Origin: a virus
Taxonomy: Duplodnaviria > Heunggongvirae > Uroviricota > Caudoviricetes
IMG/VR virus record: IMGVR_UViG_3300047476_001337
Location: 10,296-74,295 of that record
Length of the DNA stretch: 64,000 nucleotides
Strand: one strand, 5' to 3'
Shown here: in pieces, positions 21,924 to 44,159 of the stretch
How positions within the stretch are numbered: the stretch's first letter is position 1
Layout of the letters: each line of letters begins with the position of its first letter
Notes under the pieces: model-generated
What the model was told of the DNA's origin: nothing
Seen by the model: the letters and a program-made list of their open reading frames with translations, nothing else
Database searches by the model: none
Translations under genes and position numbers: made by a program

Positions 21924-22799
21924 TTATTTTTTTATTTCTTTTCTGCGGGTTCCATCATCATAGATATAAATAAGAACCTCATCTTCTCTAATATGTTTCA
22001 CAGGTCTACCTAACATATCATATACACCGATTACTTTAGGTTCACGAGTAGTCATAGTTAGGTCTTCTGTCTTAAGGGTTACACATGGGTCAATTGTGAG
22101 ACGCCTTAGCATAATTGTATCATTATTGAAACACCAATTCATCCAATAGGACACTAATACATATCTACCTGGTTTAGTAAACTTGTAATTAATAAATCTT
22201 GCAGCGTCCATAGAATCAAATTTAGAATACACAATGCAATTCTGATTACGTGAGGTCCATTCCCAAATAGCACTGTCTGTTCCGTGCACCCATTGACTAT
22301 CTGAAATACTGTTAAGTTTTGCATCTCCAAAGTATAACTCCATCATATAAGTCCAACAGTAGTCAGTTTTAGGTACGGATTTCGTCATCTGACCATCTAT
22401 TGAATCTTTGCATTTAGGGTCGTATGTTGAACCCAATTGGTAAGAAAATTGACATTGAGTGAAGTAATCATAAGTCAACACATCGCTGTAAATTATAGTG
22501 TCACATCCTGTACATTTGTTTGTAAGTTTTAAGTTAAACCTATATTTACCTTTGCTTCTAAAATAAACATAGGCTTTAGTTCCTTGCTTCATTAAGTAGG
22601 GTGATTCTTTTCCGTTACTTAGGTCGATGAGATTATAATCATACTTTACGCAAGTATCCTTGAATACATCACCTTTTAGTAACCATAAATAGTAATTATT
22701 AGAACCCATCTGGTCAATTTTGATAGAACCCCATGTACATTTTGCATTTGCTGTTGCTAAGGAGACCAAAAGCATTAACAGCGATATTAGTTTTTTCAT
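21924..22799 (-). CDS. secreted protein with an N-terminal signal peptide (291 aa, Cys-rich)
   Basis: MKKLISLLMLLVSLATANA signal peptide; multiple cysteines. Confidence 0.6.
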   Translation of the reverse strand: MKKLISLLMLLVSLATANAKCTWGSIKIDQMGSNNYYLWLLKGDVFKDTCVKYDYNLIDLSNGKESPYLMKQGTKAYVYFRSKGKYRFNLKLTNKCTGCDTIIYSDVLTYDYFTQCQFSYQLGSTYDPKCKDSIDGQMTKSVPKTDYCWTYMMELYFGDAKLNSISDSQWVHGTDSAIWEWTSRNQNCIVYSKFDSMDAARFINYKFTKPGRYVLVSYWMNWCFNNDTIMLRRLTIDPCVTLKTEDLTMTTREPKVIGVYDMLGRPVKHIREDEVLIYIYDDGTRRKEIKK

Positions 22800-25194: not shown

Positions 25195-26253
25195 TTAGTT
25201 ACTTAAAGGTGCTTTAATTGCTGGGTGTGATTGATAATCTATAAGGTAAAAATCATCAGGAACAAAGTCTGTTAAATTTTTATCATACTCACCTTCTCTA
25301 TAGTCCATACCTAATTTAGGTAACTCAAACGGCTCTCTATCAATCTGTTCTTTAGCTTGTTCAATATGATTCAGATATAAATGAACATCACCTAAGTTAC
25401 CAATTAATTCATCAGGTACCATATTAACTTCTTTAGCAATGATTTTAAGTAATAGACCATAAGAAGCAATGTTGAACGGTAAACCTAAGAATGTATCTAC
25501 TGAACGTTGATTCCACATTAAAGAGATTGCTCGTTTAGGGATATGTTCGTAGTAATTATCTATCGTATAATGAACTTCATCATACTTATCATCAGGATAC
25601 ATCATAGGTCTCATTGCAATAATAAAGTTTTTCTTTTCTGATTCCGATAATAAATTGTATCTTTCATCACTACTCAACTCTCTTGTATAAACTTGAAATC
25701 CATAATGACAAGGTGGAAGAACCATTTGGTCTAATTCACCTACATTCCAAGCATTAACCATTAAACGTCTTGAATCTGGATTTGTTTTAAGGTCGTTGAT
25801 TAGGTTTGCGATTTGGTCAATGCCCCAAGTATGGTTTGGATTTGCTGACCAGTCTCTCCATTGCTTACCATAAATTGGACCTAACTCACCCCACGTATTG
25901 GCAAACTCATCATTGGTCTTAATTTTATAAATAAACCAATCCATAGTTCCAACCTCTTCAGTGTCTTGATGTTTTACATAATTCTTGTAAGCATCACCAT
26001 TCCAAATATGACAACCATTCTCAACAAGGAACCTAATGTTTGTATCACCACGAAGGAACCATAATAACTCGGTCACCATAGTTTTCCAAGCCATTTTCTT
26101 GGTTGTGAGTAATGGAAATCCATCACTCATTTTATGACGAATAGTATAACCAAATATTGATTTGGTTCCTGTTCCTGTTCTATCTTTCTTTTCAACTCCA
26201 AAATCAATGATATCTTGAAGTAATTGTTGGTATTGTTTATCTAATTTATTCAT
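25195..26253 (-). CDS. thyA: thymidylate synthase (ThyA) homologue with insertions (352 aa), possibly a dUMP hydroxymethylase
   Basis: DRTGTGTKSIFG, LLWFLRGDTN, GPIYGKQWR, DSRR...NAWN, catalytic LPPCH, LGLPFNIASY (Asn retained, so a uracil substrate). It is ~90 aa longer than canonical ThyA. Confidence 0.8.
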   Translation of the reverse strand: MNKLDKQYQQLLQDIIDFGVEKKDRTGTGTKSIFGYTIRHKMSDGFPLLTTKKMAWKTMVTELLWFLRGDTNIRFLVENGCHIWNGDAYKNYVKHQDTEEVGTMDWFIYKIKTNDEFANTWGELGPIYGKQWRDWSANPNHTWGIDQIANLINDLKTNPDSRRLMVNAWNVGELDQMVLPPCHYGFQVYTRELSSDERYNLLSESEKKNFIIAMRPMMYPDDKYDEVHYTIDNYYEHIPKRAISLMWNQRSVDTFLGLPFNIASYGLLLKIIAKEVNMVPDELIGNLGDVHLYLNHIEQAKEQIDREPFELPKLGMDYREGEYDKNLTDFVPDDFYLIDYQSHPAIKAPLSN

Positions 26254-27021: not shown

Positions 27022-27566
27022 TTATCTTTTTTGTCTTTTCTTATAAACCACATGATTATTGGTCCTGGTATTAAAGATAAGAAAAAAATAACAATATTGT
27101 CAATTATTCGTTTCATATTATGATTTTTTTTTGAAATTACTTATCGCAATACCGAATAACCCACCCGATATAAAACAAGAAAGGATTGATAACAATCCTG
27201 TCATGTTAAATGATACAATAAGACATGTGATAGTGAAAAGTAAAAAGGTAAAATTATTCATGAACTCAATAAAGTTCAATTTTTTTTTACCATTTCTTTA
27301 ATCTCTGATAAAACACCAAGAAGTATAAAACCCAAAAATAAAGTTAAGAATGGGTGTTCTGACATTACATCAAATGCTTCTCTCATATTATGGTTGTTTA
27401 ATTTGTTGAGCCTCTTTAATTTTGATGGCTTCTTGAATCATGTTGTCGGTACTATTACCATACTGACAAGAACAGGTTGGTTTACCAGCCGCTCTTAATA
27501 TTTGTCTAGCTTCTTCTAAGTTCATAATATAATAAATACGTTTTTAAGTTATAATTGTAAAGAAAA

Positions 27567-27587
27567 ACCCCCGATTTCTCGAGGGTT
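27567..27587 (-). terminator. intrinsic terminator CCCCCGAtttcTCGAGGG
   Basis: Hairpin flanked by A- and T-runs, directly after the stop of 27593..28384. Confidence 0.5.
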
Positions 27588-27592
27588 TATTT

Positions 27593-28384
27593 TTATTTCT
27601 TTTTGTAATTATATTTATGACATTCCATCCACTTCTTATACCTTGTTTTACCAAGTATATCCAACACTTTGTTTAGATACTCTTTCTCACAATCTTTTAT
27701 TTTACCAGATGTTGTTGTTCTATCTGAGTTTGTTTTAATTTTTTCTTTTACCTTACCATTTAATAAATTCAATCCGTTTGCATATGATTTTTCAAGTGCT
27801 GCAATATCATTTTTATATTTTGTTTCAAGTTCGGTTAAAGATTTTTTCTTTTGGTCAGCGGTTATTAAGCCTTTATCGTACTTATCATTCACATAAGCAA
27901 CTTTCATTTGAAAGTCTCTATATAAACTATCACGAGTTGCTAAATACTTTTTATACATTGTAGCCTTTTCAGTTTTAGCCCAACTTTCGATTTCTCTATG
28001 TAACTTATAAAGTATTTCTTTGTTAGTTTTTTCACATTCTAATTTTGCCAAATGAGCCTTATTTAACAATTCTTTTTCAGCTTTAGTTACTTCAATACCT
28101 TTTACACAAGAATCCACATCACCTTTACCTCTTGAAACAATCATAGTGAATGGGTCGTAATCTAAAAATAATGGGTAATCCATTATTGTTACATCAGTTG
28201 ATTCTGTAACATCAGATAACATAGGATTGTCAAAAATGACTGTTCCCATAGAATCTACTACAGCGTTTGGTTCTTCATCTACCAAAAGATTAACTGTTGG
28301 GTTTGGACTTGGTATAGGTTCTTTTTCACAACCCATAAAACCAATCATACCAACTAAAACGAGTGATAATATTATTTTTTTCAT
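27593..28384 (-). CDS. putative lipoprotein (263 aa) downstream of the giant adhesin gene
   Basis: MKKIILSLVLVGMIGFMGC is a signal peptide followed by a Cys (lipobox-like); the rest is coiled-coil/Lys-rich. Confidence 0.55.
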   Translation of the reverse strand: MKKIILSLVLVGMIGFMGCEKEPIPSPNPTVNLLVDEEPNAVVDSMGTVIFDNPMLSDVTESTDVTIMDYPLFLDYDPFTMIVSRGKGDVDSCVKGIEVTKAEKELLNKAHLAKLECEKTNKEILYKLHREIESWAKTEKATMYKKYLATRDSLYRDFQMKVAYVNDKYDKGLITADQKKKSLTELETKYKNDIAALEKSYANGLNLLNGKVKEKIKTNSDRTTTSGKIKDCEKEYLNKVLDILGKTRYKKWMECHKYNYKKK

Positions 28385-28498
28385 GTTTTTTATTTATAAA
28401 TAGTTTTTATTTTTTTCAAAATTTTTGGAACATTGAATGTTCTTTTACCCATTCAATACTTTTTTTAATCAGTGTTAAAAGTTTTTTTATCTTCATTT

Positions 28499-31400
28499 TT
28501 ATCGTAATAGTGTAAAGGTTCCATTATATTGGAATACTTTATCCTCCATTGATGTTACAAATATTTTATAAACATACACACCGTCAGGAGCCTGTTTACC
28601 TAAATAATTACCATCCCAACCTCTATTAAGGTCAGTTGTTTCATACATCTTTTCACCCCAACGATTATAAACACCCATATAATATGTTTTGTTGTTTATA
28701 ACTTGTGGTCTGAATGTATTGTTTTCATTTGGTCCTGCATCATCAGGTGTAAAAGCATCTGGTACAAATATAATAATATCAGGACCAATTACAACTCTTT
28801 GTAAAGAAGAATCTTTACAACCTTTATCTGTGGTAACAACTAATTTAATCCAATAAGTGCCCGTGTCTTTTCCAAATATAATGTTTGAGTTCTTAAGCGT
28901 ATCACTACCAATCTTAAATGTTTTACCCCAACCCCAATTGTATTTCATATTGGTAATGAATGGGTTTTGACTAACACTTGATGTATTAATAGTTTTGAAC
29001 TTAGGTAACGCCACAGTTGTTTTGTATAACGGGTCAGTAGTGAACACAACACTTGGTTTTGGATAAACTTCAAATGTTTTTGTGATAGATGTTCCACATA
29101 TCTTTTCAGGAAAGAATGTATTGTTAATCGCAGTTAATGATGTTCTGTAATAACCAAAATTGTTAAACGTTTTTGACCAACTAAGATTATTTCTTAAAAA
29201 GAAGGTATCATTTACCACCCACGAATAATCAATTGATTTTATTCCACGTTTCTCAATTGGTGTGAATGTTGAAAAATGTGGTTGACATCCATTTGTTGTG
29301 ATGAAGTCAGGTTCAGGATAAGGTGTAATTAAAACCTTGATACTATCAATTACTTTAGAACAAAGTGGAGCGTTCCAAGATTTGAATTTAACTGTAAAGT
29401 ACCCATTAGCAGTATCTTTGTCTGATGGTATGTATTGTTTTTTACCAAAACCTTTAGTTCCACCAATCACTTGACCACCAGGAGGTGTTAATGTATCATA
29501 AAGACCAGTATTAACCACCCATCTAAATTTAACTGCAGGGTCAATATTTGCCGTATCTAACTTGAGAGTCCAAGTATCTTTACCACAACTTACAAATGGT
29601 GGAACAAATTTAATCTCAGGTTGATTCATTACTGTAAGTTTTAATATCTCAGTATCTTTACAACCATATTGACTTTCCCCAACCATCATAAGTTTGTAAG
29701 GATTATTAAAACCTCCAATATATCCTCTTGCCTTCGGTGTTGGTGTAAAAAATCCTGCATCAGGGTAAATTATTTTTGTCACACCAAAACTACCAGCAGT
29801 TATTACATTTTTCAAATCATATGGCCAAGGGTAGGTAGAACAAAAACCCATATCCATAACCTTCAAGTCAGGTTTATAACTAATAACAACGTCAAAGCTA
29901 TCCACTTTTGAACAAGTAATTGATTGGTCAGGAGATGTAATATTACTTACAAACTTAATGTTATAAGTCCCCACACCTATGCTAGTTTTGAATATACCTG
30001 TTGATATGTCTGTTGATACTTTAGGGTCATTTCTATCCCCATTTCTATCCTGAATAAAGATGGTACCTTTGGTAGGTTTAACCCCATCTACCAAAATGTA
30101 ATCAAATAAATTGATATTCACACCTGAGTTTTCACAATAAAGAGGTACGGTTGTCAATTCAACTCTTGGTTCCGTAATAACGTTGACATCCACTGTATCT
30201 GTACTTTGACAACCTGTAATCAAATCTTTAACGGTAAGTTTGAAAGTATACAAACCTTTGTAAAAATCCTGTGAAGGTGCACCAAAGTTAAACTTAATAT
30301 TTGGAATTGAGTTTGTAGAAACATTATATAGTAATTTAGATGTGTCGACGCCATTAGGTGCTCTAACAACTTCCCATAACATGTACACACCATTTTTTGT
30401 TGCGGGTCTTACTCTCAAGTTATCCATCATCAAAAATCCAATGTCTTGACACACCGTAGCCTTTCTTAATTGAATAATTGGTGTACCATATATGGTTTGT
30501 GTTGTCGAATCTATATTAGAACAACCATTTGTGTCGTTGAACTTAACATATATTTTTGTGGTGTAGTTGTTTCCACCTTGTAATTTATTATTGTCTACTG
30601 ATATTGTGTTGAATAAGAACCTTCCATTATTAAGATAAGTAACAATATTACCAGTCTTATTTTTAGTTCCACTCCAAATATCATAAGTTCCAAAATTGTG
30701 AGGTTTAACAATAAATGGTTCCATCCAAATACTACCATAAGAATAACATTGAGGTTTCAATGGTTTTGGGTCCCAACCAATTTTTGGTAATGGTTTGACT
30801 CTCACGAACATTGTGTCCATATCTTCACAAGTGTGTCCGTTTTGTGTAATAACAGTCTTCAATGTAAACATATAAGCTGATTTTGTAATATCAGATTTTA
30901 ACTTATAGGTTGACAAATTACCCAATCCACCCCAAGTATATGTTGGAGTCAATATAAATGGATTGTGAGACGCTTTTAACGTAAACGTGTCCTTATCACA
31001 GATTGCTTGGTTTGGTCCCGCATTTGACACCACAGTATCATTTACGACTAATATTGCAGTATCATATTTAACACACCTAAATCTTTTATCTGTAATTTTA
31101 ACCCAGTATGAACCCTTAAGGTTTGTTGTTAAGTATCGTGTTGTATCACCTGTGTTCCACAAATATTTAACAGTATCATTATTTTGACCATCAAATGTAT
31201 TTGTTTCATAAGTACAAATCACTTTATCTGAACCCAAACTAACTACAGGTAATGGTTTAACATATGTTAATGTAGTATCACGAAACTTACAACCATCACC
31301 ATCAGTTACTTCTAATCTTAGAGTTGAGTCAGACTTAAAGTTTTTGATTGTAGTGTAATCAGTTGTATCGCCGTTATTCCATTTATACTTTAACGTTGGT

Positions 31401-33034
31401 TTACCAGCAATTACTTTAGCCTTTAATGTGAATGTTGTACCATAACAAGCAAAACTATCAGCATCAGCAAGTATAACCTTTGGTGGTTGTTTCAGATAAA
31501 CAGTATCACTATAGATAGTAACACAAGATTGTGAACTTGTTAACTTATGAACTATAATATACTTCCCTTCATAGTAATAATTCATTGTATCAGTCTTCTT
31601 TGAAGAATAAAACAATTCCTTCGCTAAAGTATCTCTTACACTCCATGAATAACTTGATGCAGCATATATTTCATAAGCTTCCATGGCAAATCTACCACAT
31701 TTAAGTTGGGTATATCTACGTTTAGATTTTGGTTTTGGATTAACTTTAATTTTGAATGAGCGAATCGATGTTGCTGGTGGTTCACAATGTTGGTCACTTA
31801 CAGTTACTGTAAATGAATATGAAACATCAGACGCCGAACCAATTGGTGGTGTCCACTCAAACCAAGCGTATGATTTTCTTTTTTCAGGCCAATCATTCTT
31901 ACTTGCTAATGTAAACTTCGCACCAGGTATACCAGCATTCCATTTCATTGTTGTTGTATCAGGTGTTGTTTGATATGGCGTAAAAGTTTCGTCATCTGAT
32001 TCAACCTTGAATTTCAAAGTTTCACCCTCACAAACTTGGTATGTAAATTTTGGACCTAATGTTGGTGCTTTATTATAACCACAATCATCCCTAACCCATA
32101 TCTGCATGTCACGTCTTGTTCTACCAATAACTCTCCACACACCTGAGGTGTCTTTTCTCCATTCTGTTTGTTCAACACAAATAACCGCAGATTCATCACA
32201 TTTAGTAGGTGTAACAATAACATCACCATTTGTTGTATCAAAATAAAAACCTCTTGGTGGATTAGTCTTTGGGTTTGGAACACAATTAATTGTTGTTGGT
32301 GGGACACAGTATGGTGTCATTGGAACTTTGGATGTAAATGGTGAAGAATATGATACAGAACTATTTGGTATTCCTTGAAGACCATTTACTAATTTATAAG
32401 AAATTGAATCGTAATCAATCGTATCGGTAGCTCCGTTATTATAATACCAAGGCTGATTACAACATAAAAAGGCAATTGGTGGGTTTGATAATTGTGGCGA
32501 ACTATTACATTTATTCTTCATTTTTTGAAGGTTACAAATGTTTACCATGGCAGTAGCATAAAAATTTTGTGATGCTTGTCCTGTTGTTATGGCACCATTT
32601 CTACAACATTCATTTACATAAAATGTAACCTCACAACATGTTGATTTATTAACAAAGTTATTTAATGGTGATACGTTAAAATCAACTGTTGCTTCGAATG
32701 TATGTTCCTCAACACCTTTATTTGCAAACGCACTATTTGCTGTACCACATGGATTACTTGTAGTAGAACATCGTGTTGTAACATCTTTTATCGAAACTCT
32801 CGTTAACCCTGATAAAGTATAACTACCACAACCGTTACCACCATTTAGTCCAGCATATGCACCAAAACTTGGTGTTCCCATAGATACACCTCGACAATCT
32901 CGGTATACCTTTGCAATAATTTTATACTTACCATTTCCCAAACATTGGTAGGAAACATCGGCACCCATCATGTGAGTCGCCTGAACGCTCAGAAAACTGA
33001 ACAAAAACGCAAATAAAAATAGCAGTCTTTTCAT
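28499..33034 (-). CDS. giant (~1511 aa) secreted SprB/adhesin-like protein with a T9SS type-B C-terminal sorting domain (CHU_C / gliding-motility-associated CTD)
   Basis: Signal peptide MKRLLFLFAFLFSFLSVQA; start placed after the TATCTTTG box (33040..33047). The C-terminal ~90 aa (FTPDDAGPNENNTF...VYNRWGEKMY...WDGNY...GVYVYKIF...GTFTLLR) match the FTPNGDG..ND.F...IYNRWG....WDG....GVYYY signature of the type-B T9SS CTD. The body is rich in Thr/Asn/Gly/Cys/Trp repeats (beta-rich). Confidence 0.8.
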   Translation of the reverse strand: MKRLLFLFAFLFSFLSVQATHMMGADVSYQCLGNGKYKIIAKVYRDCRGVSMGTPSFGAYAGLNGGNGCGSYTLSGLTRVSIKDVTTRCSTTSNPCGTANSAFANKGVEEHTFEATVDFNVSPLNNFVNKSTCCEVTFYVNECCRNGAITTGQASQNFYATAMVNICNLQKMKNKCNSSPQLSNPPIAFLCCNQPWYYNNGATDTIDYDSISYKLVNGLQGIPNSSVSYSSPFTSKVPMTPYCVPPTTINCVPNPKTNPPRGFYFDTTNGDVIVTPTKCDESAVICVEQTEWRKDTSGVWRVIGRTRRDMQIWVRDDCGYNKAPTLGPKFTYQVCEGETLKFKVESDDETFTPYQTTPDTTTMKWNAGIPGAKFTLASKNDWPEKRKSYAWFEWTPPIGSASDVSYSFTVTVSDQHCEPPATSIRSFKIKVNPKPKSKRRYTQLKCGRFAMEAYEIYAASSYSWSVRDTLAKELFYSSKKTDTMNYYYEGKYIIVHKLTSSQSCVTIYSDTVYLKQPPKVILADADSFACYGTTFTLKAKVIAGKPTLKYKWNNGDTTDYTTIKNFKSDSTLRLEVTDGDGCKFRDTTLTYVKPLPVVSLGSDKVICTYETNTFDGQNNDTVKYLWNTGDTTRYLTTNLKGSYWVKITDKRFRCVKYDTAILVVNDTVVSNAGPNQAICDKDTFTLKASHNPFILTPTYTWGGLGNLSTYKLKSDITKSAYMFTLKTVITQNGHTCEDMDTMFVRVKPLPKIGWDPKPLKPQCYSYGSIWMEPFIVKPHNFGTYDIWSGTKNKTGNIVTYLNNGRFLFNTISVDNNKLQGGNNYTTKIYVKFNDTNGCSNIDSTTQTIYGTPIIQLRKATVCQDIGFLMMDNLRVRPATKNGVYMLWEVVRAPNGVDTSKLLYNVSTNSIPNIKFNFGAPSQDFYKGLYTFKLTVKDLITGCQSTDTVDVNVITEPRVELTTVPLYCENSGVNINLFDYILVDGVKPTKGTIFIQDRNGDRNDPKVSTDISTGIFKTSIGVGTYNIKFVSNITSPDQSITCSKVDSFDVVISYKPDLKVMDMGFCSTYPWPYDLKNVITAGSFGVTKIIYPDAGFFTPTPKARGYIGGFNNPYKLMMVGESQYGCKDTEILKLTVMNQPEIKFVPPFVSCGKDTWTLKLDTANIDPAVKFRWVVNTGLYDTLTPPGGQVIGGTKGFGKKQYIPSDKDTANGYFTVKFKSWNAPLCSKVIDSIKVLITPYPEPDFITTNGCQPHFSTFTPIEKRGIKSIDYSWVVNDTFFLRNNLSWSKTFNNFGYYRTSLTAINNTFFPEKICGTSITKTFEVYPKPSVVFTTDPLYKTTVALPKFKTINTSSVSQNPFITNMKYNWGWGKTFKIGSDTLKNSNIIFGKDTGTYWIKLVVTTDKGCKDSSLQRVVIGPDIIIFVPDAFTPDDAGPNENNTFRPQVINNKTYYMGVYNRWGEKMYETTDLNRGWDGNYLGKQAPDGVYVYKIFVTSMEDKVFQYNGTFTLLR

Positions 33035-33039
33035 ATCTT

Positions 33040-33047
33040 CAAAGATA
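33040..33047 (-). promoter_or_regulatory. -7 promoter box TATCTTTG just upstream of the adhesin ATG
   Basis: Minus-sense TATCTTTGAAGATATGAAAAGA. Confidence 0.5.
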
Positions 33048-33093
33048 GACAAAATTTTTGACAAAATTGCATTATGACTGTAAAAAAATAAAA

Positions 33094-33115
33094 ACCCCCA
33101 ATTCTCATTGAGGGT
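33094..33115 (-). terminator. intrinsic terminator ACCCCCAATTCTCATTGAGGGT
   Basis: Hairpin flanked by A- and T-runs after the stop of 33141..33425. Confidence 0.5.
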
Positions 33116-33140
33116 TAATTATTACTAATGTAGTAGTTTC

Positions 33141-33425
33141 TTAGTAAGGTATCTCTTCACTATTCCCGTGTTCTAATTTGTCATACATATAGGATTTGAA
33201 TGCTGATACCATTGATTGTTCTGCTTGGGCAATCTTGGTATTCATCCAATCTTCCAACTCTTCACCTTCAGGCATCGCTTCCCACATTTTATAAGCGGTA
33301 ACTGCTATGGTAAACAATTGTTGTTTTGCCATATAGTTTCCATCAGAACCTTCATTTGTTTCTGATTTCATATCTTCAACTATCTTCTTAAGTTGTGATT
33401 CACTAACTATAAAGTTTTTTCCCAT
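33141..33425 (-). CDS. hypothetical protein with the N-terminal leader MGKNFIVSESQL
   Basis: Member of the ITESQL-leader group. Confidence 0.5.
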   Translation of the reverse strand: MGKNFIVSESQLKKIVEDMKSETNEGSDGNYMAKQQLFTIAVTAYKMWEAMPEGEELEDWMNTKIAQAEQSMVSAFKSYMYDKLEHGNSEEIPY

Positions 33426-33497
33426 ATCTTATAAATATACTTAAAGTAAAAAAGGTCAGACGAATCTGACCTTTTATTGGGATTGACCGAATTTCGG

Positions 33498-33809
33498 TCA
33501 ATCAACTCCACCAACCTGTTTTTTAGGAGAAGGTGCTCCCGTAAAGATATTCAAAATATCTTCCACTTTTTCAATCGTGCAATAACCCATAACATCTGCA
33601 CCACCACAGAACAGTTTTGTTACGAAATTACCACCATTATTTTCTAGTATGGCAATTTCAAATGTAGTTTCAAAATCACCATAAAGACCTTTTGTTCCAC
33701 CAACAATTGATACAACATATTTACCAAATTCAAAGATACTTTGATATCCCCCAAGTTCTTTTGGTTGTTTCTTATCAAGTACGTCTTGTATTGTTAATCG
33801 TTTAACCAT
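33498..33809 (-). CDS. hypothetical protein (103 aa)
   Basis: ORF in the same-strand array. Confidence 0.5.
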   Translation of the reverse strand: MVKRLTIQDVLDKKQPKELGGYQSIFEFGKYVVSIVGGTKGLYGDFETTFEIAILENNGGNFVTKLFCGGADVMGYCTIEKVEDILNIFTGAPSPKKQVGGVD

Positions 33810-34089
33810 TTCTTAATTCTCCCAATTTTTTCCTTAAATAAGTAAGGTGTGAGTAATCCATATCAGTCTTAATTGGTTTTGAAACTAAATTGTCAATAAG
33901 ACTTTCAATAATTTCAATTTCAGATACATTTTCTTTTTCCTTTGTAGTCTTTTCAGGTTCAACTTCTTTTTTGTCATTAGATAAGGTTTGAATTGCTTTA
34001 ACAGCAACCGCACCTAACAAAAGTCCACCAACAAATGGCCAAAATCCACCACGTTTACGTTCCGTAACAATAATTCTTTCGTTTCCCAT
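33802..34089 (-). CDS. membrane protein (95 aa, one TM helix)
   Basis: Hydrophobic segment GGFWPFVGGLLLGAVAVKAI. Confidence 0.5.
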   Translation of the reverse strand: MGNERIIVTERKRGGFWPFVGGLLLGAVAVKAIQTLSNDKKEVEPEKTTKEKENVSEIEIIESLIDNLVSKPIKTDMDYSHLTYLRKKLGELRNG

Positions 34090-34090
34090 A

Positions 34091-34378
34091 TTATTTTGTA
34101 ACTAACGCTTCGATTTTAGACTTAACCAACTCAGTCATAGATACTTCAGATACGTTGGTCATGATAACTGAATCCTTTAAGATACGAAAAGGGATGTGAC
34201 TCAAGAAGTCTTCACCATTGAAGAAGTCAAAATCAGACTTGTGAGCCATACAACCATCCACCAAACGAAGGAATAGTTTGAATTGGTCACCACTTGAAAA
34301 TGTCTCGTTCAACAAAGTACCCATTGACTCGTGTACAATCTTGATGTTAAATCCCTTATTCATAATACAAAGATACAA
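34091..34378 (-). CDS. hypothetical protein (95 aa)
   Basis: ORF in the same-strand array. Confidence 0.5.
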   Translation of the reverse strand: MYLCIMNKGFNIKIVHESMGTLLNETFSSGDQFKLFLRLVDGCMAHKSDFDFFNGEDFLSHIPFRILKDSVIMTNVSEVSMTELVKSKIEALVTK

Positions 34379-34400
34379 TTAGTTTTTGAATTACCAAACT

Positions 34401-35426
34401 TTATTTTTCAGATAACAAAAATTTGTTTGAGATTGCTTTGAAAGAGATTGTGTTATCCAATGAACGAACAACAACACCTTCACGTTCGGTAAGCTTATTC
34501 AAACGAGATTTGTCTTCAGCCAGTTTCAACATACCTTCAACAGTATCAGGTAATAAGAATGCCACATCCAAGATTGGAACGGATAACAATTCTAACTCAT
34601 CCAATAAGATTAAGAAGTCATTGATGTTCATTCTTGTTTGTGTATCAATATCAAACCCATTGAAGAAGTGAACTGTCTGACCTTTGATTTTATATGGGTT
34701 ACCTTGGATACCTTCACCAATCAACTCACCTTGTAGACAGATGTTTCCTTTATCTTTCAATTTGTTTTCCAAGTCAAGTTCACGGGCAACTTTCCAAAAA
34801 GTATTTCCTTCAGTTTCCAATAACTCAAGGTTACGAGAACATACACCGAACACACCATCATTCATGTAGAATGTTGCAGATGAACCATCCAACTTTTCAG
34901 TCATGTAGAACTGATGTTTAGATGTTAACTTATATTCTTCATACTCCTTAACCAAGTTCTGAATTCTTTCCTCATCAGTCTTACGTAAGAAAGATGGGAA
35001 CCCACCTTTTACTTTACCAGATAGTTCAGCAGGAATTGGTGGTTCGTATTTCACAATACCCAACATTTCGGTAACATCCATACCTTCAGGTAAATCATGT
35101 CCTGTTGCAAATTGTACAATTGGAACAACACTAATTGGAAGAATAAGTCCTTGGGAGACTTGTCCACGAAGTTTAATTGTCTTCAAACGGAAACCTTCTT
35201 GGTCATCCATTTTTTTGTAAGATGATTTACGTAAAAACTCAAACTCTTCCCTGATAGGTAAGAATGAATCAATTTCACAGTAAACTACTTTGTCACCAAT
35301 CTTATGCCCAACATTTTTGGCAACAACAACATTCCATCCGCCAACAGATGCCAATTCAATCATGTCCGCACCTTCAATAGGTCGAATGTCTGTAATTTCT
35401 CTAATAGTCGCTAACTTTCTTTCCAT
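34401..35426 (-). CDS. RNA ligase-like nucleotidyltransferase with an N-terminal OB-like domain (Rnl5/DraRnl-like architecture)
   Basis: Adenylyltransferase motif I EKLDGSS (KxDG); the N-terminal ~110 aa (IEGADMIELASVGGWNVVV...GDKVVYCEIDS) look like an OB fold. I could not distinguish an RNA from a DNA ligase by eye. Confidence 0.55.
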   Translation of the reverse strand: MERKLATIREITDIRPIEGADMIELASVGGWNVVVAKNVGHKIGDKVVYCEIDSFLPIREEFEFLRKSSYKKMDDQEGFRLKTIKLRGQVSQGLILPISVVPIVQFATGHDLPEGMDVTEMLGIVKYEPPIPAELSGKVKGGFPSFLRKTDEERIQNLVKEYEEYKLTSKHQFYMTEKLDGSSATFYMNDGVFGVCSRNLELLETEGNTFWKVARELDLENKLKDKGNICLQGELIGEGIQGNPYKIKGQTVHFFNGFDIDTQTRMNINDFLILLDELELLSVPILDVAFLLPDTVEGMLKLAEDKSRLNKLTEREGVVVRSLDNTISFKAISNKFLLSEK

Positions 35427-35429
35427 ATT

Positions 35430-35612
35430 TTAATCCTTTCCGTAATTTAATCCGATTACAAACCCTGCCATCCAATAATGTTTATCATTGGCATCACCAT
35501 CATTATCCATTTGTTCCCAAACCAATTCAGCAAGTTCACGTCTTTCTTGTAATTTGGTTTTTCTTTCTTGTATAGCATCAGGGGTCATATCGACCAATGG
35601 TTCGTTTTTCAT
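35430..35612 (-). CDS. hypothetical small protein (60 aa)
   Basis: ORF with a hydrophobic C-terminus. Confidence 0.4.
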   Translation of the reverse strand: MKNEPLVDMTPDAIQERKTKLQERRELAELVWEQMDNDGDANDKHYWMAGFVIGLNYGKD

Positions 35613-35660
35613 AAAGCAAAGGTACGAAAAATATTTCTTATTGACAAGGTATTTATTGTT

Positions 35661-36158
35661 ATGACCGAAATTACACCAAAAGAAAAAATGTTGGTTAGTG
35701 TATTAGTAAGATTATACAGTAAGGAACAACTTGAGGAAGAATTAAAAGACTTATTAGAGTCTTTCGATGGAAATTCTAAATTAGTTCGTGGTGCGGCAAA
35801 ATTAATCGGTATCGATTCTTATTTGGTAAGTAGACTTGGAATTCAATATGTCAACTATGCAATTGAAAATTACGAAAAGATTCAAAATAAAGAATTTCCT
35901 GAATATATTGACAGAGTCAAAACAGCGTATTTCTACGGAGAAGAGGTTGAAGATGTTAGAACATATAGTATAAAAAGAGCCAAGGTTAATGTCTTATCAA
36001 AATACTTTGAAGATGTTGAAGACTATCTATATCACAATTTTTATGAGTTTGACCCTGATACTATAGATGTACACTACGGTGATGGTGATTTTATTTCTTT
36101 TAAGCCAGACAAAGATTCAAATGAAATTGTTGATACAAAAGATAATGTTATAAATTAA
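35661..36158 (+). CDS. hypothetical protein on the plus strand (165 aa; start placed at MTEITPKEK)
   Basis: Followed by a bidirectional terminator at 36160..36181. Confidence 0.55.
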   Translation: MTEITPKEKMLVSVLVRLYSKEQLEEELKDLLESFDGNSKLVRGAAKLIGIDSYLVSRLGIQYVNYAIENYEKIQNKEFPEYIDRVKTAYFYGEEVEDVRTYSIKRAKVNVLSKYFEDVEDYLYHNFYEFDPDTIDVHYGDGDFISFKPDKDSNEIVDTKDNVIN

Positions 36159-36159
36159 A

Positions 36160-36181
36160 AACCCCCAACTTTCGCTGAGGG
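36160..36181. terminator. bidirectional terminator ACCCCCAACTTTCGCTGAGGGT between convergent genes
   Basis: Hairpin flanked by A- and T-runs. Confidence 0.55.
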
Positions 36182-36205
36182 TTTCATTATAAAAGTATTT
36201 TAAGT

Positions 36206-37960
36206 TTATTTGTTTACCACAACCTGATATACTATTTGGTTGTTTCCACCTTGTATGTGGAAGAAATACAATCCACTATTCAAATCAGACAAGTTTACAT
36301 TTACAAAGTTATTACCTGAGATAACATTCATTGTTGTTACCTTTCTTACCATTCTACCATTCAAATCTGTAATATACACATCAGCATTAAATCCTTTTGT
36401 CGATGTAAACTCAACGGTATATTCACCATTTGTTGGGTTAGGGTAAGAATTAACTGAAGTGATTTTACCTACTGATTTAACATGTAACACACCATATTGA
36501 CCTAAAACACCATATTCAAAGTTTGATGGGTAGTTTGTTGTTGGTCTAAAATCAGGTTGATTAAAGTCGTTTGTATTGACCAATATGCCTGGGTTGAAAG
36601 TGTTGGTATCAATAAAATTGTTGTTGATTGAATTACGAACCCAACTATCCAATAGATTTACATTACCACCTGAACTTACCTCAACCAAACCTGTATTAGT
36701 TGGTCCAACAGGTGCTGATGCTTTTACACCATAAATGTAATTGTTTCTGAACAAGTTGTTTTTATCTGAAATTATATTTGATTTAACACCTGAATTAATC
36801 AATACAGAATCACCATCAAACATTACGAAGTTTCTGTAACCCATAAAGATTGAGTTGATGATACTCAAACGAGAGTTTCTACGAATTCTTACTCCACGTC
36901 TAAATGCTCCCTTTTGTGTTGTAGTTAATTGAGACCATGTCATACCAGCAGGTACTGGACCAACACAAGTCATATTTGAGAATACTGCGGATGTCAATGG
37001 TAATCTACCTGAACCTGATGCGTCATTGTCCGATTCAAATGTTTCAGAAGTTGATGCCCCTGATGGTGCATTCCAAGACATATCATATAGTTGTGAATCC
37101 TTAAATGCAATACCAAATTGAACCGCGCCTCTGTATCCAAAGTCTGTATCAAAATCGTCATCAGTAGTTTTGAATGAGATTAGATGTTTACAGTTAACAG
37201 TACCACCAAACCATTCATACGAATCATCACCTGAGTATGAAACTTGAACATGGTCAACTGTAGTATTTCTTCCAACCGAAGCAAATGTTAATCCATTAAT
37301 TTCTTTGTTGGGTTCAAACGCCAAACCACAAAATTCAATCCTTGTATATCTGATTAGACCACTATTATCATCATCGTTGATTCCACCATGCTTTGCTAGT
37401 GTTGAGTTTGTTGAAATGTTATTAAATCCTTCAACTTGAATGTCAGTACCTTGGTTATTTCTTGCCTTACCACAGATAACGATTCCACCCCAATCACCTC
37501 TACCTTTATATCCAATATCCTTTGCCGATGTAAACACAACAGGACTATTTGAAGTTCCTTCACATGAAATATAACCACCTCTTTCAACTATAATTGTTGC
37601 ATATTGTTTTGGTGTCATACTCAAATTCGCAATACCTCTGATTATAGTTCCAGCAGGGATAATCAATTTACCACCGTCTCTAACAACAACAATACTTCTT
37701 AATACGTAAGTACGTTTTGCAACCAAAGTTACAGTTCCAGTAATTTCAACAATACCTGTTGGACTATTGAAAGCCGTAGTGTCCCATCCATAATCCGCAG
37801 CCCAATAAATGCTTTTAGGGTTCCAATGTGTCCATCCACTGGTCCAATCTTTTGATTTGTCAGCCGATAAGGCTCCAACGTAATCAACTTTCTCAAAGAA
37901 TTGAGCATGTCCTGTAATACACAACAAGACCGATAATAATGTAAAAATTATTTTTTTCAT
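36206..37960 (-). CDS. secreted beta-helix-like protein (584 aa) with a T9SS type-A C-terminal sorting domain (Por_Secre_tail)
   Basis: Signal peptide MKKIIFTLLSVLLCITGHAQ. The C-terminal ~80 aa (SYPNPTNGEYTVEF...ADVYITDLNGRMVRKV...LSDLNSGLYFFHIQGGNNQIVYQVVVNK) match the type-A T9SS CTD. Gly/Asn/Asp/Thr-rich repeats in the middle suggest a parallel beta-helix, which would fit a depolymerase or lyase. Confidence 0.8.
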   Translation of the reverse strand: MKKIIFTLLSVLLCITGHAQFFEKVDYVGALSADKSKDWTSGWTHWNPKSIYWAADYGWDTTAFNSPTGIVEITGTVTLVAKRTYVLRSIVVVRDGGKLIIPAGTIIRGIANLSMTPKQYATIIVERGGYISCEGTSNSPVVFTSAKDIGYKGRGDWGGIVICGKARNNQGTDIQVEGFNNISTNSTLAKHGGINDDDNSGLIRYTRIEFCGLAFEPNKEINGLTFASVGRNTTVDHVQVSYSGDDSYEWFGGTVNCKHLISFKTTDDDFDTDFGYRGAVQFGIAFKDSQLYDMSWNAPSGASTSETFESDNDASGSGRLPLTSAVFSNMTCVGPVPAGMTWSQLTTTQKGAFRRGVRIRRNSRLSIINSIFMGYRNFVMFDGDSVLINSGVKSNIISDKNNLFRNNYIYGVKASAPVGPTNTGLVEVSSGGNVNLLDSWVRNSINNNFIDTNTFNPGILVNTNDFNQPDFRPTTNYPSNFEYGVLGQYGVLHVKSVGKITSVNSYPNPTNGEYTVEFTSTKGFNADVYITDLNGRMVRKVTTMNVISGNNFVNVNLSDLNSGLYFFHIQGGNNQIVYQVVVNK

Positions 37961-39463: not shown

Positions 39464-40069
39464 TTATATATTTTTTGTATTGTCAACTACCTCAGGGTAA
39501 TTTAATTCTATGCAGGACTTATCAAGCATTGCCTTCGCAATTTCGTAATAATGCAGATTAAATCCGTCAATATTACGTGGTGATGGTAATACATGAACAA
39601 AGTGATTTCTCTGATTATATAACATGTCAGAGTCATCATCAATGATAATGTAGTTATCAACTCCTGATTCATCCATTCTTTTTTGTTGTTCATCTTCAGA
39701 CCAGTTAATGTGTGTAAAACCCATCTCTTCAAGATAGAATTTAATTTCCATTCCTCTTGGAATACGAATTCCATTGGCTCTCATACTTGGAGTAATTCCA
39801 ATTATCTCACCACTCATTTTCTCCATCTCCCAAACTTTTTTCATGAATTCAATACCACTTTGTCTCCAAGTTGAACTAATCACAATCTTAGCTCCTGTCT
39901 CATCAATCAACTTATTAAGGAGTTCTTTACTGCGAACACAGAATCTTTGGTAGTGGTCTTTACGACCATCTTCCCAAACCCATTCCTGATACTGGCACTC
40001 ACCATTACGGTAAGCACTTTCACAGTTTAGAACCCCATCAATATCTAAAAAAATAATTTTCATTACCAA
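39464..40069 (-). CDS. HAD-superfamily phosphatase, PNK 3'-phosphatase-like
   Basis: Motif I IIFLDIDGVLN, motif II VISSTW, and IIIDDDSD correspond to the T4 Pnk phosphatase motifs DVDGTL...SGR...DDR. Confidence 0.6.
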   Translation of the reverse strand: MVMKIIFLDIDGVLNCESAYRNGECQYQEWVWEDGRKDHYQRFCVRSKELLNKLIDETGAKIVISSTWRQSGIEFMKKVWEMEKMSGEIIGITPSMRANGIRIPRGMEIKFYLEEMGFTHINWSEDEQQKRMDESGVDNYIIIDDDSDMLYNQRNHFVHVLPSPRNIDGFNLHYYEIAKAMLDKSCIELNYPEVVDNTKNI

Positions 40070-40308
40070 CTATCAATATCTGTGAAATCTTTTTCTATTT
40101 TAGCAATATGACTATAAACTCTTATCCCTGTACCAATACCATTTGGTGTGAACGTAAAGTCAAATAAACCATATTCACCATAAATCTTTTTGATGGCATC
40201 TTGCCACTCTTTGATTTCGGTTTCTTCTTTTTCATTTAATTCAAATTTTGTAATCATATTAATCCTCTCTACATTTATAATACCAAACACTATCACTATA
40301 CTCCACAA
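40063..40308 (-). CDS. hypothetical protein (81 aa)
   Basis: ORF in the same-strand array. Confidence 0.45.
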   Translation of the reverse strand: MWSIVIVFGIINVERINMITKFELNEKEETEIKEWQDAIKKIYGEYGLFDFTFTPNGIGTGIRVYSHIAKIEKDFTDIDSW

Positions 40309-40645
40309 TGAAGAATAGATAACCTGGTGAATCAGATACGGGCATTACCAACAGATTACAAAGTTTACCTTCACTATCAGTACATCGGTAGCTGGTTCCA
40401 TTATCAGTCTTCTTGAGAAGACTTACCAAATGATACTCCTGAGTTGTTTGAGAAAAAACCGTTGCAGTTGTCTGTGTTATTTTAATCAGAACATTTACAG
40501 GTTTAGTTTCACCCCAAGAAATTTCAGCACCTTGTTCATATCTGAATCCAAGTGTGACAGTACTAGCTCTTAAAAATAAGTTGGATTGAGCATAAGAGCT
40601 AATACTAACCAACGCAAATAACAATATACTTAATAATTTTTTCAT
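40259..40645 (-). CDS. secreted protein with a signal peptide (128 aa)
   Basis: MKKLLSILLFALVSISSYAQ signal peptide. Confidence 0.5.
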   Translation of the reverse strand: MKKLLSILLFALVSISSYAQSNLFLRASTVTLGFRYEQGAEISWGETKPVNVLIKITQTTATVFSQTTQEYHLVSLLKKTDNGTSYRCTDSEGKLCNLLVMPVSDSPGYLFFIVEYSDSVWYYKCRED

Positions 40646-43805: not shown

Positions 43806-43834
43806 ATATTGTTTTTATTTATTTTTTTCTTTTT

Positions 43835-44155: not shown

Positions 44156-44159
44156 TTTT

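Follow-up and report, generated by a model that had tools for sequence, protein, structure and literature searches.

Why should a phage genome encode two proteins that carry the export address of a Bacteroidota type IX secretion system (T9SS)? Both open reading frames, of 1511 and 584 amino acids (aa), are present on the minus strand where they had been predicted, within a window of 64,000 nucleotides that represents the whole stretch of DNA analysed here (Table 1). The window is recognisable as phage DNA by its densely packed genes, its single coding strand and the presence of NAD-salvage and RNA-repair genes; it is syntenic with IMG/VR contigs of 233 and 295 kb, and has at least three other genes in common with each of ~40 viral loci. 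The source is a large or ‘jumbo’ phage of freshwater-type Bacteroidota, with a genome of ~295 kb. Both genes lie outside any virion module in the window, next to genes for an RNA ligase, a HAD protein and NAD salvage (nucleotide metabolism and RNA repair), and theirs are the only T9SS sorting domains among the 111 ORFs scanned.

Table 1. Features of the locus, in window coordinates
Feature	Position	Strand	Basis
Candidate third exported protein (291 aa) with a signal peptide, 10 Cys and a short CTD-like tail (VYDMLGRPV...IYIYDDG)	21924..22799	-	
Terminator-like hairpin directly after lipoprotein gene	27565..27588	-	
Putative 263-aa Lys-rich helical lipoprotein, just downstream of the 1511-aa gene	27593..28384	-	signal peptide and Cys19
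Predicted T9SS type B cargo, 1511 aa: signal peptide aa 1–19, Cys-rich head ~20–400, repeats ~400–1420, CTD 1424–1511	28499..33034	-	HMM, cysteine spacing, GhpA match
Type B sorting domain (CHU_C / TIGR04131) of 1511-aa protein	28502..28765	-	HMM and GhpA alignment
Terminator-like hairpin upstream of 1511-aa gene	33093..33116	-	
Terminator-like hairpin, 12-bp stem and T run, ~20 nt past stop of 584-aa gene	36158..36185	-	
Predicted T9SS type A cargo, 584 aa: signal peptide aa 1–19/20, right-handed parallel β-helix aa ~57–480, CTD aa 506–583	36206..37960	-	HMM and fold
Type A sorting domain (Por_Secre_tail) of 584-aa protein	36212..36445	-	aa 506–583, HMM, solved-CTD matches

Working from the C-termini backwards, we see that the 584-aa protein matches NCBIfam TIGR04183 over its last residues at 44.6 bits (E 1e-11; curated cut-off 23 bits), and Pfam Por_Secre_tail (PF18962) at the extreme C-terminus at 49.5 bits (cut-off 27 bits). 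The tail is predicted to fold as an Ig-like β-sandwich, resembling the substrate C-terminal domains (CTDs) bound in the SprA translocon; the family profile matches two solved structures of T9SS substrate CTDs, 8glk_D and 8glj_D, with a Foldseek TM-score of 0.73 (to target) between the tail and 8glk_D, and the fold also matches substrate CTD 8gl6_D. The 1511-aa protein scores 39.0 bits against TIGR04131 (E 6.4e-10), a modest match given the curated cut-off of 35 bits, and 39.3 bits against Pfam CHU_C (PF13585; cut-off 27), whilst its isolated C-terminal fragment is recognised as a type B sorting domain at 42.4 bits. This domain aligns with residues 5814–5885 of GhpA (PDB 9flp; bioRxiv 10.1101/2024.01.29.577165), from which Aureispira sp. 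CCB-QB1 builds its grappling hooks, and the motifs NRWGE...GWDG...GTxTLLR are kept in homologues. With the TIGR04131 and TIGR04183 matches both above their curated cut-offs, the original prediction of a type B domain on the larger protein and a type A domain on the smaller one stands.

At their N-termini both proteins carry an apparent signal peptide, as had been predicted, judged by the simple criteria of n-region, hydrophobicity, charge and cleavage site: an MKR/MKK n-region is followed by a charge-free hydrophobic core with Kyte-Doolittle values of ~2.7–3.06. By these heuristics the 584-aa protein begins with MKKIIFTLLSVLLCITGHA immediately before Q (cleavage GHA/Q; uncharged core, 3.06), the ending ...AQF being kept across the family, and the 1511-aa protein with MKRLLFLFAFLFSFLSVQA immediately before T (cleavage VQA/T; 2.83), likewise kept in homologues. 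Although the larger frame is open up to a TTG at 33064 (1521 aa), homologues begin at the MKR/MKK methionine, so that the ATG at 33034, which gives 1511 aa, is the correct start. Signal peptides and CTDs of both proteins are retained in phage and bacterial homologues alike; by this address, a conserved Sec signal peptide plus a T9SS CTD, the two read as T9SS cargo, and we consider their export through Sec and T9SS likely.

Between its two ends the 1511-aa protein contains about 10–11 Ig/PKD-like repeats, which cysteine spacing suggests to be disulfide-bonded. Of its 41 cysteines, 37 are invariant over 21 phage and bacterial homologues, implying that the protein folds outside the cytoplasm. Its family profile matches GhpA (9flp_A) with an E-value of 1.5e-105 in 19 stretches, covering query residues 457–763 and 1047–1334 as well as the CTD; residues 1 to ~390 are unaligned to GhpA, and the head has no known match. 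GhpA-type repeats are disulfide-bonded, T9SS-exported modules (bioRxiv 10.1101/2024.01.29.577165), and the likeness lies in this stem of cysteine-containing Ig-like repeats ending in a T9SS CTD. The two differ in size (5898 aa and 52 repeats for GhpA), in the Cys-rich N-terminal head of ~400 aa, which is unalignable with the GhpA hook, and in the genes downstream: ghpB (PorP) and ghpC (PorE) for GhpA, an unrelated small lipoprotein gene for the phage. A further hallmark of the GhpA family is its assembly into a hollow, heptameric fibre at the outer membrane.

The larger protein had been described as ‘SprB-like’. SprB of Flavobacterium johnsoniae is a large, repetitive, T9SS-exported surface protein of ~6500 aa with a type B CTD and an adjacent sprF gene; of these features, the phage protein shares the large size, the repetitive build and the type B CTD, and probably the display at the surface through the T9SS. 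Unlike SprB, however, it has no SprB-repeat match in Pfam (its only Pfam domains being PKD-type and CHU_C), is about a quarter of the length and lacks an adjoining sprF-like gene; membership of the SprB family is thereby ruled out, the repeats and tail matching GhpA instead, and there is no indication of movement along gliding tracks. Type B cargo usually depends, reportedly from work on F. johnsoniae by Kulkarni and colleagues, on a cognate outer-membrane partner of the PorP/SprF kind; the gene for such a partner commonly adjoins that of the cargo. GhpA, with GhpB/GhpC, is likewise a type B cargo with such a partner (bioRxiv 10.1101/2024.01.29.577165). No PorP_SprF match was found in any window ORF of at least 243 aa, and no partner of this kind lies beside the relatives among the called genes of L068, L069 and L152. 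This weighs against export of the larger protein, but the partner may be supplied by the host or by another part of the ~295 kb genome.

The body of the 584-aa protein is a right-handed, three-faced parallel β-helix of the pectin-lyase-fold superfamily, so that the predicted β-helix is borne out at the level of the fold. Its best structural neighbours are phage tailspikes, yet the relationship is distant: identity to any solved β-helix, including those of CBA120 TSP2 (6w4q), Pel9A (1ru4) and the PL6 alginate lyases, is ~10%, with Foldseek TM-scores of ~0.2, and no family-specific catalytic motif of the pectin-lyase-fold enzymes was identified. Invariant acidic ladders (GDWGG, DDxxEWFGG, DDDFDTDFGY and ESDND) go with this fold; they are compatible with Ca2+-assisted binding or cleavage of a glycan.

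Given such neighbours, might both proteins be virion components—tail spikes, fibres or head decorations—with the ‘CTD’ put to new use there as a binding domain of the Ig-like kind? Ig-like repeats are a common feature of virions, in a related phage (L069) the gene for the larger protein has Gp23-like, Mtd_N and lectin-type genes close by, and T9SS-domain ORFs have been found near head genes in gut phages (de Jonge et al. 2019, PMC6949934). Set against this, all copies have cleavable-type signal peptides, the invariant cysteines imply extracytoplasmic folding, the full-length homologues in bacteria are encoded on chromosomes, in a pair with a gene for a TonB-dependent receptor (TBDR; see below), the neighbours in the window are metabolic and RNA-repair genes, and neither cargo protein matches a PHROG virion family; we regard a place on the particle as very improbable. 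For the 584-aa protein in particular, a tailspike or virion depolymerase was rejected on its architecture as well as on its non-structural neighbours and the lack of a PHROG match: the mature chain starts almost at once with the β-helix, has no N-terminal particle-binding domain, and possesses a signal peptide and T9SS CTD where tailspikes have a virion-attachment domain.

The closest cellular homologues of both proteins all belong to Bacteroidota, which fits the host phylum that had been proposed. Those of the larger protein are full-length, 42–47% identical, and found on contigs of 179–814 kb; those of the β-helix protein are 56% identical overall and 65–72% over the body. Both sets are full-length genes in ordinary chromosomal contexts. 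The existence of such close bacterial homologues, together with the want of either gene in some close relatives (the β-helix gene is missing in L152/L153 and the larger gene, at this locus, in L005), could signal a mis-assembly that joined bacterial DNA to a phage contig, or recent captures that the phage leaves unused. This we hold to be extremely improbable: the same arrangement recurs in independent assemblies and samples (L001–L004, L006/L007 and L152/L153), with an identical cargo protein recovered from four independent assemblies; phage genes bound the region on both sides; the GC and GC3 of the cargo genes are those of the remaining phage sequence; and the ORFs are intact, keep their functional residues, have terminators of their own and are 62–91% identical among phage copies. 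Both genes are, instead, dispensable ones, present or absent among close relatives, and their sequences mark them as host-derived and repeatedly exchanged with hosts. Viral copies form at least four clades nested among the bacterial copies, indicating repeated acquisition, which in turn suggests an advantage for the phage.

What that advantage might be is approached through the neighbour of the β-helix gene. Of 79 bacterial loci, 63 have a TBDR gene directly upstream; in viral loci it lies immediately downstream, with the whole pair present in 22 of 63. In one of these phages (L050) the two genes are 6 bp apart, with homologues of window genes on either side, and the TBDR, which bears a signal peptide, ends in ...YKF. 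The phage TBDR is nearest to TIGR01782 (TonB-Xanth-Caul), yet falls under the cut-off of that model. No TBDR or TBDR remnant was found in the window, so that in this phage any coupling must rely on a transporter of the host. The conserved TBDR partner suggests that the β-helix protein acts at the cell surface in a role coupled to uptake. The arrangement recalls TBDR-centred carbohydrate loci (Xanthomonas/Caulobacter-type, and the SusC/D-type PULs), in which a transporter gene is tightly linked to one for a surface or secreted glycan-handling protein. It differs from SusC/D PULs in being a minimal two-gene cassette whose partner would be a T9SS-exported β-helix protein rather than a SusD lipoprotein, and from known TBDR loci in that phages carry it, either whole or as the partner half.

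This pairing bears on the original prediction that the protein might be secreted to degrade polysaccharide, as a depolymerase working ‘from the inside out’. A released enzyme of this kind would strip the capsule or EPS of the infected cell and its neighbours, easing escape of progeny and the next adsorption; the invariant acidic clusters are in its favour, and many type A cargo proteins are either released or attached to the surface. The fold is, however, generic and shared with non-enzymes such as NosD and autotransporter passengers, identity to known enzymes is low, no CAZy-type family in Pfam or NCBIfam matches, and the homologues in bacteria, encoded on the chromosome, have an importer as their partner, a setting that fits foraging rather than removal of the cell’s own capsule. 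We therefore think such an enzyme improbable; the TBDR pairing points to capture or processing at the surface tied to uptake.

The same link could be read in another way. TBDRs are classic phage receptors, and the T5 lipoprotein Llp blocks FhuA; the exported proteins might similarly cover receptors, the β-helix protein a TBDR and the larger protein the gliding/T9SS surface fibres, thereby excluding superinfection. On this account the infected cell would be protected and progeny spared adsorption to debris. The tie between the β-helix family and TBDRs is in keeping with it, as are the presence in the window phage of the partner protein without a transporter, a phage lipoprotein gene probably co-transcribed with the larger gene, the phage resistance of flavobacterial T9SS and gliding mutants, and the faster evolution of the cargo genes relative to their neighbours (62–77% identity to the copies on the 233 and 295 kb contigs, against 93% for the intervening RNA ligase). 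Yet an intact transporter gene in 22 viral loci makes little sense for receptor masking, and the catalytic-looking acidic residues and 37 cysteines are invariant between phage and bacteria, as one would predict for proteins that retain their native function. We judge this account rather unlikely.

The explanation that we prefer, with a probability of roughly 0.55, is that these are host-derived accessory genes whose products would be exported to the host surface by the host’s own T9SS. Made in the infected cell, they would cross the inner membrane through Sec and reach the surface through the T9SS, so that, by their sequence features, the infected cell probably displays both a phage-made fibre and a phage-made β-helix protein. 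The roles that we would assign to each are put forward tentatively. The 584-aa protein would work at the outer surface alongside a TBDR, the host’s own for the window phage and a phage-encoded one in sister phages; it probably acts on a polymer outside the cell, by binding or cleavage, with an acidic glycan the likeliest candidate, and the product would pass to the transporter. The phage might in this way boost nutrient capture over a long infection, a benefit that we infer solely from gene linkage. The 1511-aa protein would be a fibre anchored in the outer membrane, with a GhpA-type stalk of ~10–11 Ig-like repeats and a Cys-rich distal head, giving the infected cell a new adhesive structure.

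Phage proteins with T9SS sorting domains are not in themselves new, contrary to what the original prediction implied. Bellas et al. 2020 (PMC7468147) describe predicted T9SS cargos, stated to be type A, in ‘Cryophage’, and de Jonge et al. 2019 (PMC6949934) report T9SS sorting-domain ORFs, of a type not stated, on gut phage contigs; both place them in the variable part of the genome and propose that phage hijack host secretion. The present locus resembles these in being a Bacteroidota phage contig that encodes T9SS CTD proteins. It differs in its cargo, which consists of a Beta_helix_4 protein and a GhpA-type fibre of Ig repeats; theirs comprises endoglucanase, GH39, PA14 and BACON proteins. 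As neither paper reports type B (CHU_C) cargo or a TBDR link (PMC7468147, PMC6949934), the type B phage fibre and the transporter link appear to be previously unreported. A broader suggestion, to which we give somewhat less than even odds, is that the jumbo phages infecting freshwater Bacteroidota remodel the outside of their host cells as a matter of routine, via the T9SS of the host, with a captured uptake module, a GhpA-type fibre bearing a type B sorting signal and further secreted proteins; the two-gene outer-membrane module, a T9SS-exported β-helix protein and its own TBDR, would have been captured repeatedly and be carried whole in some phages. If this is true, the fibre would be the first type B cargo of the T9SS to come from a virus, and no virus before would have provided its host with an outer-membrane importer as well as a substrate for a secretion system.

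Two further proteins may belong to this set. The putative lipoprotein that had been predicted downstream of the larger gene is confirmed in its signal peptide, MKKIILSLVLVGMIGFMG, which ends at an invariant cysteine (Cys19, in 11 of 11 aligned family members, with a C-K-K-E/D consensus from there); positions -3 and -2 of the lipobox (F and M) are non-canonical. The family is small, with 22 representative clusters among 1.84 billion proteins. No terminator lies between the two genes, which are probably co-transcribed, and we infer that the hairpin at 33093..33116 marks the start of a separate transcription unit comprising them; the lipoprotein may anchor or modulate the fibre. In its small size, its signal peptide and its invariant lipobox cysteine it is akin to Llp of T5 and Cor of phi80/N15, phage lipoproteins that alter the surface of the host, but it has no sequence relationship to them and differs in its length, its Lys-rich helical character and its probable co-transcription with a T9SS fibre gene. 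The 291-aa protein is a possible third exported protein by its sequence features: the window copy has no sorting-domain HMM match, whilst relatives fill the slot downstream of the larger gene in other phages, that of L069 carrying a type A CTD (TIGR04183, 25.5 bits).

Both predicted cargo genes are open reading frames on the minus strand (Table), and each ends in the T9SS (type IX secretion system) sorting domain (CTD) that the original prediction assigned to it: type B on the 1511-aa protein (TIGR04131, amino acids 1424–1511; 39.0 bits, E 6.4e-10, NCBIfam cut-off 35) and type A on the 584-aa protein (TIGR04183, aa 506–583; 44.6 bits, E 1e-11, NCBIfam cut-off 23). Pfam concurs (CHU_C at 39.3 bits and Por_Secre_tail at 49.5 bits, respectively; cut-off 27 for both), and each CTD type is found once among all 111 non-overlapping ORFs scanned in the window, no third ORF carrying either. 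The larger frame stays open as far as a TTG at 33064; since its homologues begin at an MK(R/K) methionine, we take the 1511-aa product, initiated from the ATG at 33034, to be the right reading. Both proteins also have the anticipated signal peptides, called here by a simple heuristic plus conservation across homologues: the Sec-like N-termini combine a basic n-region, a hydrophobic core without charge (Kyte–Doolittle about 2.8–3.1) and a predicted cleavage region with small residues (VQA/T and GHA/Q), features kept in all aligned homologues of both. The lipoprotein expected downstream of the larger gene is likewise present, its predicted signal peptide ending at Cys19, a residue invariant within a small family (only 22 representative clusters in 1.84 billion proteins).

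Strong terminator hairpins punctuate the region (Table), with none found between the 1511-aa and lipoprotein genes; from this placement we infer that the 584-aa gene is either monocistronic or operon-final, and that the larger gene and the lipoprotein gene form one unit. A nearly identical stem, AACCCTC…GGGGGTT, recurs in the three strongest hairpins, and suggests a repeated terminator element delimiting cassettes of accessory genes. Exact copies of the palindromic 11-mer CAAAAATTTTG occur just twice in the window, ahead of the 1511-aa and lipoprotein genes; it could be a Bacteroidota-type ‘-7’-like promoter element, or a coincidence. As a general promoter motif it was rejected, its one-mismatch frequency across the window being that of chance (12 vs 11.6); a window scan for sigma-70-type promoters showed no enrichment (51 vs 56.8), a result that is uninformative for Bacteroidota.

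The phage origin of the window is well supported. It is 92% coding, with 95 of its 111 ORFs sharing one strand and no tRNA genes, and its content is of the large-lytic-phage kind: thymidylate synthase, NAMPT and PRPP synthetase, NADAR, a DNA methylase, a NUMOD homing endonuclease and SLT, alongside a T4 Rnl1-type and a second RNA ligase, HAD_SAK_2/AAA_33 RNA-repair partners and a CCA/poly(A)-polymerase-type enzyme. The window lacks a virion hallmark gene, and its identification as phage is based on gene content, synteny and IMG/VR membership; a search of IMG/VR for the capsid gene of this lineage, using the Gp23-like protein of a related contig (L069), gave no confirmed match, and megablast of 26–40 kb against 50,697 phage records returned nothing, indicating no close cultured relative. 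Synteny extends to IMG/VR contigs of 233 kb (L007) and 295 kb (L006), with identities of 93% for the RNA ligase, 77% for the beta-helix protein and 62% for the 1511-aa protein, and some 40 further viral loci also have at least three other window genes. Among related contigs, L071 has gp32, UvsX-like, DnaB and RNR genes, and L069 has genes for Gp23-like, ClpP, Mtd_N and endolysin proteins. Four independent metagenome contigs carry an identical 584-aa protein among unchanged neighbours, and in GC and GC3 neither cargo gene stands out from the remainder of the window; an assembly artefact is unlikely, and ‘artefact or dead cargo’ ranks fourth and last among the rival explanations.

The beta-helix fold proposed for the 584-aa protein is supported by structure prediction, in which a model from 93 diverse homologues (pLDDT 88.7, pTM 0.81) has a predicted signal helix, a long beta-solenoid (approximately aa 57–480) and a C-terminal beta-sandwich. 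A first AF2 model, from a shallow 20-sequence alignment of close homologues (pLDDT 57), was discarded, Foldseek having matched its CTD alone. In both sequence and fold the CTD resembles 8glk_D, 8glj_D and 8gl6_D, CTDs solved within the SprA translocon. The protein belongs to the uncharacterised Beta_helix_4 family, very common in Bacteroidota, which counts over 7,900 proteins and over 566 genomic matches, the latter nearly all in Bacteroidota MAGs; a PHROGs search assigned no family to the exported proteins, nor to the phage transporter described below. Two Saprospiraceae MAG proteins (P0073 and P0109; 960 aa and a 726-aa partial) have a tandem-duplicated body. Acidic motifs (GDWGG, DDxxEWFGG, DDDFDTDFGY and ESDND) are invariant, or nearly so, in phage and bacterial members alike and would fit glycan binding or cleavage with the help of Ca2+; that the protein is a released depolymerase aiding escape is the second-ranked rival.

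The decisive clue to the function of the 584-aa protein is the linkage of its gene to that of a TonB-dependent receptor (TBDR). A TBDR gene (~950 aa) lies immediately upstream of the beta-helix gene, on the same strand, at 63 of 79 bacterial loci, most of the remainder ending at a contig edge. Of 63 viral loci, 22 have a TBDR homologue immediately downstream of the beta-helix gene, the opposite order to that in bacteria; 13 of these 22 have at least three genes in common with the window, and TBDR-carrying phage contigs have up to 11. In L050 the two genes are separated by 6 bp, with homologues of window genes on either side; the 853-aa receptor has a signal peptide, a terminal …YKF and a full-length match to TIGR01782 (TonB-Xanth-Caul) at 220 bits, under the model cut-off of 310. 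Neither a TBDR nor a TBDR remnant was found in the window itself. Receptor masking / superinfection exclusion is the first-ranked rival, but sister phages carrying an intact transporter argue against pure masking.

In a rough neighbour-joining tree the viral beta-helix copies form at least four clades nested among the bacterial ones, from which it follows that the gene has moved between hosts and phages several times. The window's own clade (window, L005, L007 and L072) sits within a bacterial group with 65–72% identity in the body and a TBDR partner. Both cargo genes are optional: the beta-helix gene is missing from two otherwise syntenic loci whose 1511-aa homologue is 85% identical (L152/L153), and the larger gene is absent at this locus in L005. 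A TBDR/beta-helix pair (35% identity over query aa 1–573) also occurs in a record titled as a gammaproteobacterium (Glaciecola amylolytica CP034120.1, 2566246–2583823), and so may exist outside T9SS-bearing phyla.

The description ‘SprB-like’ fits the 1511-aa protein only loosely, as a name for any repetitive surface protein with a type B tag; Pfam finds no SprB repeats, only weak PKD-type repeats and CHU_C. Of 41 cysteines, 19 lie in a 400-residue head; from about aa 417 they are paired 25–29 residues apart with a period of 75–100 residues, a spacing that points to some 10–11 disulfide-bonded Ig-like modules, and 37 are invariant in 21 phage and bacterial homologues. Homologues are full length (1460–1580 aa), the phage copies being 55–91% identical and those on bacterial chromosomes (contigs of 179–814 kb) 42–47%. 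Whilst a PDB search with the single sequence found no match, the family profile matches GhpA, the grappling-hook protein of Aureispira sp. CCB-QB1 (PDB 9flp), at E 1.5e-105 in 19 stretches spanning the Ig-like repeats and CTD (query 1429–1501, GhpA 5814–5885) and excluding the head. A short fibre of the GhpA type, bearing another head, is thus the best description of the protein.

Type B cargo normally requires a PorP/SprF-type partner, as known from work on Flavobacterium johnsoniae. The GhpA case agrees, homologues of PorP and PorE being encoded downstream of this Sec/T9SS substrate, whose 52 disulfide-bonded Ig-like repeats build a heptameric, outer-membrane-anchored fibre (bioRxiv 10.1101/2024.01.29.577165). 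Scaling from 240 nm for 52 repeats, we estimate that a fibre of the 1511-aa protein would be roughly 45–50 nm long. No PorP/SprF gene was found in the window or beside relatives of the larger gene, including a bacterial homologue set among CPSase, FTHFS, PfkB and glycosyltransferase genes (L068); if exported, the protein must use the host's partner or one encoded elsewhere in the phage genome. A formate–tetrahydrofolate ligase gene adjoins this homologue (L068, 7523–14623) and also beta-helix genes in a dozen MAG loci (L070, L073, L077–L080, L087, L089, L092 and L093 among them); perhaps these MAGs belong to the host lineage, or perhaps both cargo genes occupy a common surface-protein neighbourhood.

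The best-supported reading of the architecture, fold, conservation, linkage and phage context of the two proteins is that both are host-derived accessory proteins, which would pass through Sec and subsequently the host T9SS. At the cell surface the beta-helix protein would work with a TonB-dependent transporter (the host's in this phage, phage-encoded in its sisters), capturing or cutting extracellular polymer for uptake, and the 1511-aa protein would build a fibre at the outer membrane whose Cys-rich head would serve in adhesion. That both are instead virion components ranks third among the rivals, and the signal peptides, invariant cysteines and chromosomal, TBDR-linked homologues speak against it.

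Further exported-looking proteins are encoded in the window (Table). The 291-aa ORF has a short tail (VYDMLGRPV…IYIYDDGTRRK) like a truncated type A CTD, and its relatives fill the slot downstream of the larger gene in L152/L153 and L069, the last with a recognisable Por_Secre_tail domain; this ORF may encode a further T9SS cargo, the third, whose signal would be minimal. A phage beta-helix copy (P0084) ends in the same short tail. Together with the cargos, the predicted N-termini of the 128-aa and SPFH/Band_7 proteins show a small set of phage-encoded proteins apparently directed to the envelope. Phages of this group seem commonly to encode several T9SS-tagged proteins each, the extra cargos of L069 and L071 lying near Lectin_C/LamG proteins and a PG_binding+GH19 endolysin.

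Table. Features of the window (own coordinates) and of related loci (L-numbers, genomic loci with homologues of window proteins); a slash marks predicted cleavage
Feature	Position	Strand	Remark
1511-aa protein	28499-33034	-	type B CTD
584-aa beta-helix protein	36206-37960	-	type A CTD
Lipoprotein, 263 aa	27593-28384	-	
Terminator hairpin + T run, strong	36185-36158	-	directly after 584-aa gene
Terminator hairpin + T run, strong	33116-33093	-	upstream of 1511-aa gene
Terminator hairpin + T run, strong	27588-27565	-	directly after lipoprotein gene
Palindromic 11-mer	33050-33060	-	16 nt upstream of 1511-aa start codon
Palindromic 11-mer	28417-28427	-	33 nt upstream of lipoprotein start codon
291-aa ORF	21924-22799	-	clear signal peptide (…ATANA/KC), 10 cysteines
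128-aa ORF	40259-40645	-	typical Bacteroidota signal peptide (…SSYAQ/S)
SPFH/Band_7 protein	46872-47738	-	N-terminus ends in lipobox-like FTGC
RNA-repair/NAD-salvage genes	34401-35426, 39464-40069, 40642-41121, 42276-46003, 48828-49868		NADAR elsewhere in window
RmlC-type dTDP-4-dehydrorhamnose 3,5-epimerase	24078-24629	-	adjoins thyA (25195-26253)
Region with phage TBDR, apparently intact	L050:10001-14130		directly after beta-helix/CTD gene
Phage TBDR, further loci	L043, L045-L053, L060, L031-L033 and 9 further IMG/VR loci		
Extra type A cargos in related phages	L069:14693-23208, L071:12214-14103		282-aa protein; 629-630-aa Cohesin+Por_Secre_tail proteins
Distant homologues of both window proteins, incl. 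type B CTD	LR745206.1 (634 kb) 15118-16605, 80368-81087; LR756502.1 (642 kb) 518590-519387		

T9SS cargo is usually seen as purely bacterial, serving gliding, virulence or polymer degradation. Sorting-domain proteins have been reported on gut phage contigs (de Jonge et al. 2019, PMC6949934), and a ‘Cryophage’ with three type A cargos led to the proposal that this phage hijacks host secretion (Bellas et al. 2020, PMC7468147); given these reports and the huge-phage homologues (Table), the general idea of phage T9SS cargo is not new. The records of those two published huge-phage genomes carry no annotation, and a Tenacibaculum phage paper mentions the T9SS for the host only. In the searchable literature, which holds few subscription journals and where absence is weak evidence, we found nothing relevant on viral type B (CHU_C) cargo or phage-borne TonB-dependent transporters, and neither a viral GhpA-type fibre nor a Beta_helix_4–TBDR pairing.

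The interest of the finding lies in its being widespread, recurrently acquired and directly testable, since CTD-reporter fusions and T9SS mutants already exist in F. johnsoniae. If phages do load their own cargo onto the T9SS, then at any one moment viruses would determine both surface and secretome in a sizeable share of the Bacteroidota cells in the environment, with effects on polymer turnover, particle adhesion and phage–phage competition. The TBDR link is a first functional lead for the Beta_helix_4 family; a GhpA-type fibre with a quarter of GhpA's length could help define the minimal fibre-forming unit, and phage type B cargo with no adjacent PorP/SprF partner is a natural test case for the strictness of partner specificity.

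RNA-repair-type genes (two RNA ligases, HAD_SAK_2 and an AAA_33 kinase-like gene) and an NAD-salvage set (NAMPT and PRPP synthetase) flank the cargo genes; both are typical counter-defence/metabolic genes of jumbo phages. The RmlC-type epimerase gene stands beside that of thymidylate synthase, an arrangement kept in L152, and has a possible role in modifying a surface sugar or DNA sugar.
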